A DNA stretch of 64,000 nucleotides from Escherichia coli (lineage in GTDB: Bacteria > Pseudomonadota > Gammaproteobacteria > Enterobacterales > Enterobacteriaceae): the NCBI RefSeq assembly GCF_016903815.1, contig NZ_CP069973.1. One strand, 5' to 3'. Of the stretch, positions 42,118-48,463 are shown one piece after another (position 1 is the stretch's first letter; every line of letters begins with the position of its first letter). Under the pieces are notes generated by a model, which had not been told where the DNA came from, searched no databases, and saw nothing but the letters and a program-made list of their open reading frames with translations. Made by a program: the position numbers and the translations under genes.

Positions 42118-42908
42118 TTAACGTCCCCTGTGTTACCTTTCGTTTTATCACGAGCAATAAGCTGGCTGGCAATTACCATCACCAGCGACAGCACCAGTAA
42201 TATGGTTGCCAGCGCGTTAACTTCCGGCGATACGCCGACTTTGACCATCGAATAAATTTTTAACGGCAGAATTTCATAGCTTGGTCCGGTGACGAACGAA
42301 GAAACTACTACATCGTCCATCGACAGGGTAAAGCTTAACACCCAGCCCGCCGCTACCGCTGGCATTGCCAGTGGCAGAATGATTTTTCGCAGAATGGTAA
42401 ATTCGCTGGCACCGAGATCTTTCGCCGCTTCCAGCATTCGCACGTCAAAACCTTTCAGGCGCGAATACACCGTCACCACCACAAACGGCAGGCAGAAGGT
42501 GATATGCGAGAACAGCAGCGACCAGAAGCCAAGCTGAATACCCAGCAGCATAAACAGCACCAGCAGAGAAATCGCCATCACAATATCTGGCGACATCATC
42601 ACCACAAACAGCATTCCGCTAACGAACGGCTTACCGCGAAAGCGATAACGGTACAGCGCAACTGCAGTCAGTGAACCGATAAGCGTAGCAAACGTCGCTG
42701 AAAACACCGCCATCGTCAATGAATGCTGAGCTGCCTGCAACAGACTGTCGTTGTTCATCAGCAGGCTATACCATTTAGTGGTAAAACCCTGCCAGTTGAT
42801 GCCAAAGCGCGAGCTGTTGAACGAGTTCACAATCAAAATAATGATTGGAATATACAGGTACGCGTAGATAGCGGTCATAAAACCGCCGCGAAGCAGTCGA
42901 CCGATCAT
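42114..42908 (-). CDS. potC: Spermidine/putrescine ABC transporter permease
   Basis: 264-aa ORF; the upstream partner potB is not where expected. Confidence 0.93.
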   Translation of the reverse strand: MIGRLLRGGFMTAIYAYLYIPIIILIVNSFNSSRFGINWQGFTTKWYSLLMNNDSLLQAAQHSLTMAVFSATFATLIGSLTAVALYRYRFRGKPFVSGMLFVVMMSPDIVMAISLLVLFMLLGIQLGFWSLLFSHITFCLPFVVVTVYSRLKGFDVRMLEAAKDLGASEFTILRKIILPLAMPAVAAGWVLSFTLSMDDVVVSSFVTGPSYEILPLKIYSMVKVGVSPEVNALATILLVLSLVMVIASQLIARDKTKGNTGDVK

Positions 42909-43074
42909 TCGAGTTCCACCTTCTTATTCATAAGGTGGAGCACTTTCAGGATTTTGAATTTATTCAATTTTTTCCTTTCTCCAAAATCTCTCCAAAACGT
43001 TTCCCCAAAACTAGGCCACGCATTTTACAACACTTTTTTCCTGAGATGGTGACGGATATTCCATATGGTGTTTG
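42909..43074. other. Prophage left junction (attL-containing region) with a short potB-like 3' tail
   Basis: Only 166 bp separate the potC start from the integrase 3' end; minus strand has an ATG-less open frame of about 35 codons ending ...KVLHLMNKKVELE with TGA overlapping the potC ATG. Confidence 0.55.
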
Positions 43075-44193
43075 TCAAATAACCAACTTAACCCATTCCT
43101 GACCTCGAGTATCGTTATAGCGATCGGTGGTTGCCTGGACTTTATGTCCTAGTAATGTTTTTGTATCGATACCCTGTGCACGGTACAGCCGTTCTGATAG
43201 AGAGCGTTGTTCATGAAATGTTGGCGGAGTTTTTCCTGCTGGTGGAATTATCCCAGCCAGATCCCGTGCTTTGGCAAAGTAGTCGCTCAGGTTGTCTTTA
43301 CTCATCGGCTTCGGTTGTTTCTGGTGCCGACTATGGATTAGATATGGACTTAATATTCTGTCTCGGCACCCATCAATAACTTCTTTTAACGTTATCCCAA
43401 TGGCATCACAGCGTAGTGTAAGCGGTAACGCCAGACGCATTCCGGTTTTTCCCTGGGTGATATGCAAGTGTTCGTTCCACACATCTGAAAAACGCATGTG
43501 GCAAATGTCATCACGGCGCTGACCAGTAACAATCGCAAGAAGCATTGCGTTACGGATAAAGTGTTTTTCAGGCGTTGCATTGTAAATTTTTTGCCAGTCT
43601 TCCATGGTGAGCCTGGCTCTGGTTACTTTAGGGATCGGTTTACGGGTAGCCTCCGGAGGATTCCATCCAGGAGGAACTTCCCCTGCATGCTGTGCTTCTT
43701 TATAAATATCAACCCATAATCCACGATTTACTCTCGCTGTGCTGACCATGTCTTTATCCAGCCACTCATCCAGTATTAATGCAAAGTCTCTTACTTCCAG
43801 TTCTTTCAATGGGTGGTTTCCCAGACGGGAAACCAGGTATGCAGCCATTCGAGTTTTTTCTTTGTGAGTTGTAGCTGCAATATCTCCATTTTTCAGTCGC
43901 GTGTCCTGTATTTTCAGATATCGATCAACCCATGCCTTTAATCTGATACCCCGACGTTTTGTTGCTGACGGACTTTCATCAATTTTGCGCATGAAATATT
44001 CAGCTTCTGCTGCAGCTATTCGCTGATTGGCTGTGGAAGCGATTTTTTCTGCCTTACCTTTGTCTGTTCCGAGTCCGTGAAATTTTCCAGTCACAGGATT
44101 TTTATACTGGTAGTAAACTCTGCCAGTTCTGCGATCAAACTTTTCGTAAAGACCGGCTACGTCAGTGCTGTTTTTTCGTGGCCTCGGTGACAT
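43075..44193 (-). CDS. int: Lambda-family tyrosine integrase
   Basis: 372 aa; C-terminus HEQRSLSERLY...LGHKVQATTDRYNDTRGQEW matches the lambda Int catalytic R-H-R-Y region. Confidence 0.92.
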   Translation of the reverse strand: MSPRPRKNSTDVAGLYEKFDRRTGRVYYQYKNPVTGKFHGLGTDKGKAEKIASTANQRIAAAEAEYFMRKIDESPSATKRRGIRLKAWVDRYLKIQDTRLKNGDIAATTHKEKTRMAAYLVSRLGNHPLKELEVRDFALILDEWLDKDMVSTARVNRGLWVDIYKEAQHAGEVPPGWNPPEATRKPIPKVTRARLTMEDWQKIYNATPEKHFIRNAMLLAIVTGQRRDDICHMRFSDVWNEHLHITQGKTGMRLALPLTLRCDAIGITLKEVIDGCRDRILSPYLIHSRHQKQPKPMSKDNLSDYFAKARDLAGIIPPAGKTPPTFHEQRSLSERLYRAQGIDTKTLLGHKVQATTDRYNDTRGQEWVKLVI

Positions 44194-44428
44194 GAGTTAA
44201 AATCTCCTTCAGTGCATCATCATCGCCAGTATGAATTTCCGGCGCAATTCCCGTTTCACCAGGCCCAACAAATACTGCTCGGCGATCTATCAGCCAACGC
44301 CCACGAATTTTTTGTGGTCTTGGAACGATGTATCCTAGTTTTCCGTATTTCACCAGGGTAGTGTTTGTTATTGGGAGACTGAACCGTTTTGGTTTCCACT
44401 CGTCGAGCGTTATCAGGTACTGTTCGCT
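44162..44428 (-). CDS. xis: Excisionase
   Basis: Small ORF overlapping int start; lambda Xis-like pattern (LDEW...RW...P.P.K.GR.W). Confidence 0.7.
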   Translation of the reverse strand, partial: SEQYLITLDEWKPKRFSLPITNTTLVKYGKLGYIVPRPQKIRGRWLIDRRAVFVGPGETGIAPEIHTGDDDALKEILTHVTEATKKQH

Positions 44429-44492
44429 CATGGCTATCACTCCGGAACGCGCCAGTTGCAGAATATCAACGACAACTGGCGACGGTTGAACA

Positions 44493-46949
44493 TTAAAAAT
44501 CAGCCTGACTCGGGATCAGTTTTTGCCAGATAACTGAAACGTATTTTGCCTGGTAACGGGCGTCATCAAGTGCATTATGGCGCTCACCTTCGAATGGAAT
44601 AGCCGTTCTGGCATCGAAGTCTATGGCTTTCCCCAGCTCAACGATTGTGCGTACATCGCGATCGTTGTAGTAACGCCACGGGCAGGGGATCCCCTGCCGT
44701 TCGTATGAACGGCGCAAAATCGTGTTGTCGAAGTTGGCTCCATTTCCCCAGACCTGAACAAAAAATTCGCCGGAGTTTTCGTCGATAAATTCCCGCAATT
44801 GTAACAGTGCATCATCTAACGGGATTTCATCGGTCATAATGGCAGATTGCGCTTCGCGTGATTGCTTAAGCCACCATTTAATGGTGTCCCGATCAATGAC
44901 TCCGCCAGCAGTTTCCAGATCGATAGTCTTACTAAATTCCGGTCCCATATCTCCGGTTTGCGGATCGAAAAATATTGCACCTATTGAGATAATCGGGGCA
45001 TCTGGATTTTTTCCCATGGTTTCAAGGTCGATCATTAGATGGTCACACGTCCCGCTGGTGGATGTGCCTTTATGATGACCGTTCACCTTAACTGAGTGAT
45101 CTGTCGCCTCGCCAGTTTCACTATCGCTATCGTGATGCTGATTGCCGCCAGGGTTCTCCTTGTGTGGATGTTCAGTGCCTTCCATTTCCTCCGGATCATT
45201 TTCCTGAACTTCAACCTGATTCTCTTCATTGAATGTTTCCTGGTATGTTGCGTCGCCCATCACCGCGCCACAATCAGGGCAGTTGCCGCCGCCGGTCTGA
45301 CCGCAGGCGGTGCAGATCTTTTCCGGTTCCTGTTGCACTACTGGTTCAGGTTGTTTCGTTTCTGGCTCGTTTTGTAACGCATTTGGGCTGTTTTGTTCCG
45401 CTTTCTGGCCGTTCTGTTCCGTTTCTTGCTGGTTCTGGTTCACAGAATCGCGGGTTTCCATCCCCTTGACCCATTTCGGATCATTCGGGTCGCTAATCCC
45501 TGCAACAAATTCTCCGCGAGAGGCCGCAAGCAACTTATCGGCGTCAGGCTGGCTGATATTGGCTGCCTGCATAATTTTGTTTACTTCGTCAGCGGTAACT
45601 TTTACCTGATTAACCGGATCTATCTGTGCCTGAGTATCCAGCGATTGCGTGTCCTGGCGATGTTCAGTTGTATTCGGCTCCATTGCTTCAGTCGTTGCCT
45701 GTTCATCTGCCATTGCGTCAGACGGTTGTGATTTTTCCTCATTATTTTTTTCTTCTTCTGTTTCGCGTTCAGCAGCCAGTTCGCGGTTAACTTCTTCCAG
45801 GATATCTTTTTCCGGTGTATGTCGTGCAGCAGCGAGAGTTTCCTCGGTAGGGTTCTCGTGATCAGTTTCCGTCAAATAGGCGTTGATATACCCCTGAAGG
45901 CGTCCCGGGTAGTGATAAAATTCAGGGTGTGCGCTTCGGATAAGTGCAAAAATAGCGGCGCGGGAATAATCCAGGATACCCGGGATTGCGCGAAGTGCTG
46001 CGGACCATTCTTTGAACGGACTTTCTTTCTTCCGGACGACTTCTTTTGCGCGACGATAAACGCTGCCCGGAATTTCATAAATATTAAAATCCATCGGAAG
46101 TGTGGCCGCTGCAATCTCCACATCCAGCGTATCGAAGGTGTGTACTAAATTCGGATTGCGATCGGTTTTGTTCCCTCCACCGGCATTAGCACCGGAAGCC
46201 GTGCGGGTGATGCGTGAAACACGATTTCCTTTCATCCACTCTTTTGTCAGCAGACCGCGATCGGTGTAGTCAGCGCCCAGGTATGCTTCGAAAAAAGCAG
46301 TCATCAGTCCCAGGTCTGAATTACCAGGATTAGGGAAAACTTTGTCCGTGTCACGAACCAGTTTGTGGAGATCGCGAATTTCCAGCGGTTCGAGTTGCGC
46401 TGCTTTATTTGAGATGGCCAGCGCGGTAACGGCGGGAAGTTTTTCATCCTGTGCGTTATGTAATGTGCGCAGTTCGTCCCGCGAAACGTGTGTGATCGGT
46501 TTTTCGCTGCCGTGCTGTGCCAGCCATCGAACAGGCAGAATCTGACCTGAAACCGGCAGGAGCATGTTCTCCTCAATCTCAGCCATGTCTTCGCCGTTGA
46601 CGTTGGTATTGTCAGTGCTGGCTGGTTTATCCTGAACAGAGGGCGAGGGCGCGATAAGTACCATTGTGATACCATCTTCACCGCCCTTTTCGTATCGGTT
46701 GCAGAATTCGGTATCAAACACGCCTTCCGGAGGAAGGTCATTCACAACGGGTAAATGGACGCGAACAGGTTTTTTAAAATCCTCTTTGTCAAATCCGGCA
46801 TCGTCCATTGCGACAACACCGCGTGATATTGCAACCGATAATTTTTTTGCTGTGCGCCAGTAAAAACCGCCTTTAATTCCAAGACGTTTTCTGATTTTGT
46901 CATTTTTGGCTTCGTAATATAGTGCAATTTCTTCTTTATCAGTGCTCAT
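44493..46949 (-). CDS. Phage exonuclease with C-terminal DEDDh (DnaQ-like) 3'-5' exonuclease domain
   Basis: 818 aa; C-terminal motifs IDLETMG and HNALDDARY; long acidic low-complexity middle region; C-x2-C...C-x2-C zinc ribbon. Confidence 0.75.
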   Translation of the reverse strand: MSTDKEEIALYYEAKNDKIRKRLGIKGGFYWRTAKKLSVAISRGVVAMDDAGFDKEDFKKPVRVHLPVVNDLPPEGVFDTEFCNRYEKGGEDGITMVLIAPSPSVQDKPASTDNTNVNGEDMAEIEENMLLPVSGQILPVRWLAQHGSEKPITHVSRDELRTLHNAQDEKLPAVTALAISNKAAQLEPLEIRDLHKLVRDTDKVFPNPGNSDLGLMTAFFEAYLGADYTDRGLLTKEWMKGNRVSRITRTASGANAGGGNKTDRNPNLVHTFDTLDVEIAAATLPMDFNIYEIPGSVYRRAKEVVRKKESPFKEWSAALRAIPGILDYSRAAIFALIRSAHPEFYHYPGRLQGYINAYLTETDHENPTEETLAAARHTPEKDILEEVNRELAAERETEEEKNNEEKSQPSDAMADEQATTEAMEPNTTEHRQDTQSLDTQAQIDPVNQVKVTADEVNKIMQAANISQPDADKLLAASRGEFVAGISDPNDPKWVKGMETRDSVNQNQQETEQNGQKAEQNSPNALQNEPETKQPEPVVQQEPEKICTACGQTGGGNCPDCGAVMGDATYQETFNEENQVEVQENDPEEMEGTEHPHKENPGGNQHHDSDSETGEATDHSVKVNGHHKGTSTSGTCDHLMIDLETMGKNPDAPIISIGAIFFDPQTGDMGPEFSKTIDLETAGGVIDRDTIKWWLKQSREAQSAIMTDEIPLDDALLQLREFIDENSGEFFVQVWGNGANFDNTILRRSYERQGIPCPWRYYNDRDVRTIVELGKAIDFDARTAIPFEGERHNALDDARYQAKYVSVIWQKLIPSQADF

Positions 46950-47026: not shown

Positions 47027-47236
47027 TTACGGTGCTGTTTTAAGCCCCGCCGGGATTTCGTTATTGTCCATGTGAATAACTTTATCGACCGGATAACAGT
47101 TGCCGGGAATTTTCTGTTCCGCTGCGGCAGCCATGCATTCTTTCATTGAGTTGTACATGCCGGTGATTGCATCAAGCGACTCACCAGTATTGAGATGTAC
47201 AGTCAGAATGAGTACGAATAATGTGTTCATCGCCAC
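47027..47236 (-). CDS. Small membrane protein, YdfD-like by position (putative host-killing/lysis protein)
   Basis: 69-aa ORF with N-terminal hydrophobic segment, immediately downstream of the DicB-like gene as ydfD is in Qin; identity not verified. Confidence 0.45.
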   Translation of the reverse strand: MAMNTLFVLILTVHLNTGESLDAITGMYNSMKECMAAAAEQKIPGNCYPVDKVIHMDNNEIPAGLKTAP

Positions 47237-47415
47237 TCTCCGAAAATACCGAGTTTAAGAAGGGCAATTCTGGAGAGTATGGAATTGTCATTCAGCAGGT
47301 AGGGTTCATATTTTCTCATATTGATTGCATCCTCGGTGAAATCCCTGTTACTGAGCAGAACACCAATATTAAAGCACCCGTCAGACGTATTAACGTTTGG
47401 TAGTGACGTTTCCAT
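47227..47415 (-). CDS. dicB: DicB-like cell-division inhibitor
   Basis: 62 aa; LPNVNTSDGCFNIGVLLSN..FTEDAIN.RK closely matches recalled E. coli DicB. Confidence 0.75.
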   Translation of the reverse strand: METSLPNVNTSDGCFNIGVLLSNRDFTEDAINMRKYEPYLLNDNSILSRIALLKLGIFGEWR

Positions 47416-47425
47416 TATCGCGTCC

Positions 47426-47983
47426 TCAACAATGAATTTTTAGCAATTGCTCCACAGTCATATTTTTAATTGCGCTCCGGTTTACAAGAGTCCATCCTTG
47501 TTTCTCCAGATAAAACCGGAAGGTATCCAGGGTGCAGACCATTGCGCCGTCAGGAACGGTTTCAGTGAATTTGATATTGCCGTGTTCGTCGAGACGGATA
47601 ACCAGGGTGCGTCCGTCCCCGTGAATCATTTTGTCGGGAGACGGGGCGTTATTCTGGCGCAGTTCTTCCTCCATGCGATCGAACTCAGCGATGTAGGCTT
47701 CTTTGAAAGTTGCGGCTTTTTTACCTGTGAACCCCATCACCAGGAAAACGAAGCCGTTTTTGGTGATTTGGTACATGGGGCGTTTTTCGCCTTTGGCGTC
47801 GGTGTAGGTAACGGGCGTAAAATTGCGCTCGTTAAAATCTTCAGAGCATTCTAGCGTTTCAATTTTGCGCAGAACGTCCTTGTGCATTTTGCGGAAGAAC
47901 TCTGCAACCGCAACAGACGTAGTGACAGCGCGACCATTTTCGATGGTTACGTCAGGGTGAGAAAGGGTAGGGATAGTAGCCAT
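47426..47983 (-). CDS. rha: Rha-family phage regulatory protein
   Basis: Start at internal ATG with RBS gagg (MATIPTLSHPDVTIENGRAVTTSVAVAEFFRKMHKDVLRKIE); the ORF-track 5' extension crosses a terminator-like hairpin. Confidence 0.7.
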   Translation of the reverse strand: MATIPTLSHPDVTIENGRAVTTSVAVAEFFRKMHKDVLRKIETLECSEDFNERNFTPVTYTDAKGEKRPMYQITKNGFVFLVMGFTGKKAATFKEAYIAEFDRMEEELRQNNAPSPDKMIHGDGRTLVIRLDEHGNIKFTETVPDGAMVCTLDTFRFYLEKQGWTLVNRSAIKNMTVEQLLKIHC

Positions 47984-48463
47984 AATGGCAGCCTCTTGGT
48001 TGAGTATTAATAACTCACCACCAAGGTTTTCCACGACCATAAGGGTGGTGAGGCGTACAGGGGTGGAAATACCGGTCAACCAAGAATCCGGCCAGCCTTG
48101 CAGCTGCCCTGCACGCCCCACCATAATCTGAATGTGGCTGTGCTTGACGCATAAAAAAACCGCCTGAGCGCGGTTATGCGCTTGATTGAATTCCGGGTTT
48201 CCACGCCCGGCACCCGTTTTATGAGGTGCAGGTGCACTATAATTCCACCCGTTCTGGTTTTCAATAGCTACATTCAACATTTTCTCTTACCTTTCATCAC
48301 CGAAGTGAACTTTGTTGATGCGGTGCCTGGTGCCTCCAGGTGACGTTAACCAGTTAACAATTAACGCCGGATACAGAGAATCCACCCATAACACTGTTTT
48401 TGGTTTTAACTGTTCCGCGTGCGCTTAGCCGCATTCACCGCATCACAAAATTCACTTTAAAAA

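Follow-up and report, generated by a model that had tools for sequence, protein, structure and literature searches.

The DNA analysed here, a window of 64,000 nucleotides (nt) from Escherichia coli (RefSeq assembly GCF_016903815.1, contig NZ_CP069973.1), contains one end of a Qin-like prophage. The last gene before the excisionase and integrase genes (xis/int) of this prophage encodes a protein of 818 amino acids (aa) that consists of a RecE-type N-terminal module (N-module), an acidic linker and a DEDDh exonuclease domain. Judged by homology, the protein is the N-terminal part of RecE in which the 5′–3′ nuclease is replaced, at a domain boundary, by a 3′–5′ nuclease of the DEDDh type. The coordinates of the gene, its segments and its neighbours are collected in Table 1.

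The open reading frame (ORF) is not a chance one. It begins with ATG, is preceded by a GAGG Shine-Dalgarno sequence 9 nt upstream and is 100% identical to the annotated coding sequence (CDS) of WP_001542183.1. The gene is present at a coverage of at least 80% in 1272 of 5426 complete E. coli genomes, and the identical 818-aa protein is found on at least 1000 public contigs. In a codon comparison with a 91%-identical variant (L008), the ratio of non-synonymous to synonymous rates (dN/dS, omega) amounts to 0.14–0.18 in the folded domains N1, N2 and N3. The gene is already catalogued: it has a RefSeq name and a precomputed Pfam architecture, and several PHROGs also cover the protein. Homologues are labelled ‘exodeoxyribonuclease VIII’ in several phage records (H16–H19, H34, H36; vB_EcoM-606R7, L009 501–2944) despite their DEDDh domain and without a RecE nuclease, and one phage record divides the gene between two CDSs.

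Table 1. Segments of the exonuclease gene and neighbouring prophage genes in the window (pLDDT, predicted local distance difference test score)
Feature	Position (nt)	Strand	Remarks
Whole CDS	44493..46949	-	818 aa; RecE-type N-module, acidic linker and DEDDh exonuclease; RefSeq WP_001542183.1, ‘exonuclease’
N1, aa 1–103	46641..46949	-	alpha/beta domain, AlphaFold2 pLDDT >90; 25–33% identity to K-12 RecE over aa 1–120
N2, aa 121–250	46200..46589	-	helical domain, AlphaFold2 pLDDT >90; partly under PF06630
N3, aa 257–400	45750..46181	-	helical domain, AlphaFold2 pLDDT about 80–97
Acidic Gln/Glu-rich linker, aa 401–636	45042..45749	-	predicted disordered, net charge about -32
Conserved island, aa 473–493 (LLAASRGEFVAGISDPNDPKW)	45471..45533	-	family motif LAAxRG[DE][FY]VxGISDPxDPKW
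CxxC-x7-CxxC zinc-knuckle-like element, aa 546–560	45270..45314	-	C546-x2-C549-x7-C557-x2-C560
Recombination junction	45096..45101	-	RecE homology stops at aa 617 (...ETGEATD), aligned to RecE residue 588
DEDDh 3′–5′ exonuclease domain, aa 637–818	44496..45041	-	PF16473, Rv2179c/DexA family
Excisionase	44162..44440	-	directly downstream of exonuclease gene, 52-nt gap
Integrase	43075..44193	-	prophage end abuts potC
dicB	47227..47415	-	upstream operon gene
ydfD-like DUF1482	47027..47236	-	upstream operon gene

The relationship to RecE is carried by several matches. BLASTP aligns residues 50–588 of K-12 RecE with aa 58–617 of the protein at 56% identity, and PF06630 (the N-terminal Exonuc_VIII family of Pfam) matches aa 55–189 above its gathering score (E 1.9e-27). 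The NCBIfam model of exodeoxyribonuclease VIII (the equivalog NF007259) covers aa 1–620 with its positions 1–602 of 877; the score of 908.7 lies below the cut-off of 1269, so that the protein is not assigned to the equivalog. Identity to RecE changes along the protein like a mosaic: beyond the poorly matching start listed in Table 1 it reaches 65–93% in 40-residue windows of aa 121–280, drops to 21–38% at aa 281–400 and returns to 36–82% at aa 401–600. Beyond aa 617, BLASTP against K-12 RecE finds no similarity. The only solved RecE structure (3H4R) spans residues 605–866, and the PF12684 PDDEXK domain is located at 615–850 of K-12 RecE; a Pfam search for this PD-(D/E)XK domain in the 818-aa protein gave no match. 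Because RecE homology ends just before the nuclease region seen in 3H4R and PF12684 is lacking, the two proteins differ by a nuclease swap at the domain boundary. The N-terminal domain of RecE has been described as ‘of unknown function’, with the nuclease domain alone being genetically sufficient (PMC11611040).

In order to assess folding, AlphaFold2 was run with an alignment of 39 sequences. The first 400 residues are predicted to form three domains with pLDDT values mostly above 90, and values below 50 are seen at aa 104–120, 251–256, 407–450, 497–545 and 552–631. The initial annotation had described the several hundred residues in front of the nuclease as strongly acidic, Gln/Glu-rich and of low complexity, and most of the protein as being of unknown function, a reading that a known ordered domain in the N-terminal region would contradict. 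The description fits aa ∼361–636, where the acidic zone lies, but not aa 1–360, which are predicted to fold and are of ordinary composition (about 16% D+E, 13% K+R and 29% hydrophobic residues over aa 1–400). It is correct that no function is known for most of the protein; however, the first 400 residues are homologous to RecE according to Pfam, NCBIfam and BLASTP and are predicted by AlphaFold2 to form three ordered domains, which contradicts the initial reading for this part.

The confinement of the DnaQ-like exonuclease motifs to the C-terminus, as originally proposed for this phage exonuclease, is borne out. PF16473 matches aa 637–808 with an E-value of 1.3e-67 and 227.3 bits against a cut-off of 27, covering model positions 2–177 of 177. 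All five catalytic residues are kept: D641, E643, D741, H791 and D796 align with D7, E9, D119, H186 and D191 of T4 DexA. The domain is predicted with pLDDT values mostly between 80 and 95, decreasing to about 65 at aa 691–710, and the nearest solved fold is DexA itself (8KEL; Foldseek E 8e-8, TM-score 0.64–0.71), followed by RNase T and Orn. Between the window protein and its variant the domain differs by three synonymous and no non-synonymous changes.

We then considered how widely this architecture occurs. A word-indexed protein search returned only near-identical E. coli copies, and the diversity of the family was taken from an all-against-all search of representatives instead: aa 1–635 were searched against 1.84 billion cluster representatives, which yielded 272 relatives at E≤0.001, and the segments of the query were mapped onto the best 150 of these 272 (50%-identity cluster representatives). 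Among these 150, the RecE-type N-module is joined to the RecE PD-(D/E)XK nuclease in 22 representatives, to the DEDDh domain in 18 and to a domain of ∼270 aa belonging to phrog_7838 in 11. No other piece of the family is as widely shared as N3, which also occurs behind YdfE-type N-termini. For 22 of 42 proteins the nearest N3 belongs to a protein of another C-terminal class; the N3 of the query is 89% identical to that of a class-3 (phrog_7838) protein and 88% identical to that of a RecE-type protein. Moreover, the 3′ half of the gene (nt 1344–2457) shows about 94–97% DNA identity to PPompW, Tritos and mEp460-type phage genes whose N-termini differ from that of the query. Since the classes are interleaved in N3, identity to RecE is mosaic and closely similar 3′ halves stand behind other N-termini, we conclude that the C-terminal domains have been exchanged repeatedly and recently.

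The third class (relatives P0129 and P0204; L010 5001–7996, L011 5001–7996 and L012 5001–7717) is ‘exonuclease’ by name only. Its phrog_7838 C-terminal domain gave no Pfam match and no PDB profile match, and the genes are followed by an overlapping gene for a Sipho_Gp157 (PF05565) protein. The invariant stretch KKSLTDAxKKALSxLGFxADIxxGLYD of this domain is faintly suggestive of annealases of the Rad52/Sak type, a likeness that is unconfirmed and that we do not claim.

The linker that joins the N-module to the nuclease is strongly acidic: over aa 400–636 the net charge is -32, with 20% D+E, 19% Q+N and 14% hydrophobic residues, and AlphaFold2 predicts it to be disordered (pLDDT 28–56, below 50 over most of aa 401–636). 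A linker of this kind was found in all 35 representatives that possess both N3 and a nuclease. Its length varies from 74 to 305 aa and its net charge from -12 to -38, and it contains 15–24% D+E and only 2–10% K+R. Codon comparisons of the plain linker segments gave omega values of 0.34–0.35 against L008 and of 0.50–0.95 against recE. At the end of the linker, aa 576–636 (45042–45224) differ from L008 by 13 non-synonymous and no synonymous changes; the contrast with the adjoining DEDDh domain is clear, although the sites are too few for a claim of positive selection. We read the linker as a tether that may be selected for charge, flexibility and composition and not for sequence.

Two short elements within the linker behave differently from their surroundings. 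The motif LAAxRG[DE][FY]VxGISDPxDPKW is present in 42 of the 150 family representatives, in all three C-terminal classes, and also in K-12 RecE. Omega over aa 451–496, which include this motif, is as low as 0.04 against L008 and 0.15 against recE. Short helices are predicted just upstream (aa 453–462 and 470–477), and the block reaches pLDDT values of 70–82 over aa 451–490. In our reading the motif is a candidate for a docking site common to the family. The second element comprises four of the seven cysteines of the protein. That a C-x2-C...C-x2-C pattern exists had been noted correctly, and it is ∼85% identical to its counterpart in RecE; omega over aa 541–575 is 0.18 against recE, with too few changes for a value against L008. 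Its earlier designation as a zinc ribbon holds only in part: the pattern is real and common to RecE, but it is lineage-restricted, present in only 5 of the 35 nuclease-bearing representatives, and is not confidently folded in the model (pLDDT about 43–49). We take it as a putative zinc knuckle of the E. coli lineage.

The genes of the prophage around the exonuclease gene are tightly packed on one strand in the order repressor, DUF1391 (ydfA-like), Rha, dicB, DUF1482 (ydfD-like), exonuclease gene, xis and int. The corresponding order in the Qin prophage of K-12 is dicA-ydfA-ydfB-ydfC-dicF-dicB-ydfD-ydfE-intQ, where ydfE is a pseudogene cut by IS2E. The exonuclease gene is hence the last one before xis/int. 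An annealase gene (recT) was sought by annotation in the early-left operon and none was found, xis following directly; likewise, no recognizable anti-RecBCD or Rec module is encoded in the early-left operon of the window prophage. The order repressor .. dicB-ydfD-[gene]-xis-int is shared by the window, by another E. coli and by the surroundings of a 44%-identical relative. A position just upstream of xis/int without an annealase nearby was observed at three further loci: in the other E. coli, for the 44%-identical relative, which sits at a different chromosomal site, and for a KilR-adjacent relative. A scan for promoters and terminators gave counts no higher than those in shuffled sequences.

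The prophage extends from 43075 to beyond 64000 and is inserted into the potABCD operon at the junction of potB and potC (window 42890–43085). Prophage-free E. coli match only nt 42890–42930, annotated as potB and potC, and the int–potC junction is carried by 1412 of 5426 genomes. The gene for the Rha-family regulator (47426–48280) is flanked by a short dicB fragment (L001 10556–10639; annotated as a pseudogene where RefSeq has the identical locus) and by the intact dicB, which points to insertion within a dicB region that had been duplicated.

By its domain content the gene is a mosaic and belongs to the RecE/YdfE family, which is found in early-left operons of lambdoid prophages; we consider it probable that its product is a 3′–5′ exonuclease targeted by the N-module and made upon derepression. 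According to its operon position, the protein would be produced when the prophage is derepressed. With its complete set of catalytic residues it should be enzymatically active and, as a metal-dependent exonuclease, shorten nucleic acid from the 3′ end. The likeliest substrate is DNA, because DexA is the nearest characterized relative, while RNA is also possible since the namesake of the family is an RNase and RNA is the substrate of RNase T and Orn, which have the next-closest folds. To the N-module it would be indifferent which effector is attached; it could serve as a portable unit for targeting or assembly and bring an enzyme to a shared partner or substrate, probably DNA ends or a factor of recombination or replication. 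Together with the linker it would set where or when the nuclease acts, whichever enzyme is attached. The acidic linker would act as the flexible tether proposed above, and its motif, with the zinc knuckle in the E. coli lineage, might dock a partner or another part of the same protein. The idea of an interaction scaffold, raised initially for the whole region preceding the nuclease, is in this sense plausible for the N-module and the linker motif. As a leading guess, 3′ DNA ends might be trimmed while the phage develops, which could alter recombination or the action of RecBCD on phage DNA; as an alternative outcome, the enzyme might attack incoming nucleic acid. A survey paper states that trimming of 3′ tails usually opposes recombination in E. 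coli (PMC12315714).

Three points weigh against this proposal. First, exonuclease activity is not universal in the family, because the representative P0137 has lost the catalytic Glu. Second, a DNA substrate cannot be told from an RNA substrate by sequence, and PF16473 is named after an exoribonuclease. Third, expression on derepression is deduced from the position in the operon, and transcription from an internal promoter is possible.

RecE is a workhorse of recombineering, and yet its N-terminal ∼590 residues, two-thirds of the protein, have no known function. Because module, tether and motif are kept while a catalytic domain of opposite polarity has been swapped in without an annealase, the N-module may have a role outside RecET chemistry, for instance in targeting, assembly or regulation. 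More tentatively, the N-module, the acidic tether and the LAAxRGEFVxGISDP motif could make up a portable delivery cassette that prophages repeatedly re-equip with a 5′–3′ exonuclease, a 3′–5′ exonuclease or a third domain with a Gp157-like partner; we hold this to be possible and no more. If it were true, the binding target of the cassette would account for the N-terminal two-thirds of RecE, which have long lacked an explanation, and the DEDDh version would be a targeted anti-recombination or anti-phage nuclease and not a recombinase. The natural chimeras and the short conserved motif provide means to probe the role of the N-module. In addition, about a quarter of E. coli genomes hold a 3′–5′ exonuclease that looks active by its sequence. 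In the available parts of the literature searched we did not find a description of a RecE N-module with a polarity-reversed nuclease, of the three C-terminal classes, of the family-wide acidic tether or of the linker motif. The advance is modest: it offers a handle on the RecE N-terminus, and a new mechanism is not demonstrated.

Among the alternatives, the one that survives best is that the protein is a prophage-encoded anti-phage exonuclease acting against superinfection, in which the DEDDh domain degrades incoming phage nucleic acid and the N-module and linker provide specificity or regulation. About a quarter of E. coli genomes keep the gene intact, and its neighbour is dicB, a prophage gene for which blocking of some phages has been reported; we count both in favour of a defence role, as well as the fact that T4 DexA belongs to the same Pfam family and is the closest solved fold. 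An E. coli homologue of DexA, EcD, is reported to protect against T4 by cutting DNA that contains 5-hydroxymethylcytosine (5hmC) (PMC12153337), and prophage-borne, ISG20-like ‘TONDO’ DEDDh exonucleases with uncharacterized auxiliary domains are reported to block RNA phages (PMC13344964). However, the residues expected of such an enzyme are not conserved here. DexA W152 is replaced by Tyr761, so that the Trp expected for 5hmC recognition is not kept, and D169 falls on Ala775 in the alignment, where an Asp two positions further on makes the assignment ambiguous. The EcD type is defined by loss of the tetramer-forming D90, which is Ala in EcD; here the Asp is kept, as D712 or D713, depending on the alignment. 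PADLOC gave no match for the full protein and a weak, generic DEDDh match for the domain only, and the gene comes last in an operon under repressor control, unlike a moron expressed in the lysogen. The EcD primers encode different ends (MIDTET... at the start and ...TIPETYD at the end), which makes EcD a different protein. As to whether EcD might itself be a domain of such a fusion, a look for its 3′ primer in viral contigs gave no match, where it must be borne in mind that the EcD gene may be codon-optimized. On balance we regard a primary role in defence as rather unlikely, though as the most serious competitor of the targeted exonuclease described above.

In a second alternative the acidic region is the functional core, either as a DNA-mimic decoy against RecBCD or restriction enzymes, as had been suggested at the outset, or as an auto-inhibitor of its own nuclease. 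The strongly negative, hydrophobic-poor composition, kept in all nuclease-bearing relatives even where the sequence differs, speaks for it, as does the early-left operon's lack of a recognizable anti-RecBCD or Rec module. The known DNA mimics Ocr, Gam and ArdA are rigid, folded proteins. No folded, rigid acidic array of this kind was recognized: the region is predicted to be disordered and under relaxed constraint, including the replacements near its end, and it is always placed between two folded parts, as a tether would be. A segment predicted to be disordered and with omega values of 0.34–0.95 is unlike these proteins. The idea fits the conserved charge and conflicts with the predicted disorder and the relaxed constraint, although a mimic acting in disordered form is conceivable; in itself it is neither supported nor excluded. 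As an account of the whole protein we judge it improbable.

It is considerably less probable still that the gene is a decaying remnant of a cryptic prophage without current function. The IS2-disrupted ydfE of K-12, the split gene in one phage record and the nearly neutral evolution of the linker could be taken as signs of decay. Against this stand the full-length, intact ORF, its recurrence as an identical protein, purifying selection in the N-domains, the purely synonymous changes in the DEDDh domain and the intact catalytic residues. Finally, the notion that the protein is simply RecE (exodeoxyribonuclease VIII), a 5′–3′ exonuclease on double-stranded DNA for recombination of the RecET type, draws on the labels in phage records and on large scores from PHROG 607 and NCBIfam PRK09709, but an identity taken from database names is refuted by the domain content, with the partial and sub-threshold NCBIfam match, no PD-(D/E)XK domain, no RecE similarity after aa 617 and no recT downstream, and we give it almost no credence.

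The targeted exonuclease proposed here can be placed next to several known systems. Earlier work has noted genes for DnaQ-type nucleases close to int in the early-left operons of lambdoid phages, without assigning them a role, as well as ‘RecE-2’ proteins without a nuclease; the part of that survey that was available does not describe a fusion to the RecE N-module, a conserved acidic tether or the linker motif (PMC12315714). Rv2179c of Mycobacterium tuberculosis, the namesake of PF16473, belongs to the same Pfam family but is described as a stand-alone 3′–5′ exoribonuclease. T4 DexA (8KEL/8KEN) shares PF16473, the five catalytic residues and the closest solved fold with the DEDDh domain. However, identity is 27–28% and the extra loops of DexA appear as alignment gaps; furthermore, DexA and EcD (‘HREX’, PMC12153337) are stand-alone enzymes of about 200–230 aa, whereas the nuclease described here forms the last 182 residues of 818.

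YdfE of the K-12 Qin prophage (b1577) occupies the same operon slot, dicB-ydfD-[gene]-int. Its intact form, represented by P0128 (823 aa), has the linker and the DEDDh half in common with the 818-aa protein, whereas its first ∼250 residues are a YdfE_N/YdfE_C module without BLASTP similarity to the RecE-type N1–N2. The PPompW, Tritos and mEp460 phage genes mentioned above are related to this form. We asked whether K-12 YdfE could be a truncated copy of the 818-aa protein and rejected this for lack of BLASTP similarity. The K-12 ydfE (L007 6079–6999) is instead the 5′ end, cut by IS2E, of a DEDDh exonuclease of the P0128 type, to which it is 98.8% identical over 256 aa.

The closest comparison is that with RecE (exonuclease VIII) of the Rac prophage (b1350). 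The two differ in their catalytic ends, a PD-(D/E)XK 5′–3′ nuclease in RecE and a DEDDh 3′–5′ exonuclease here, and in their partners, recE being followed by recT in Rac whereas no RecT partner accompanies the present gene. In either case the gene comes late in a lambdoid early-left operon that is read towards xis/int. Their N-terminal ∼590 residues are homologous, with 85–93% identity in parts of N2, and both proteins possess the acidic linker, the LLAASRGEFVxGISDPNDPKW motif and the CxxC-x7-CxxC element.

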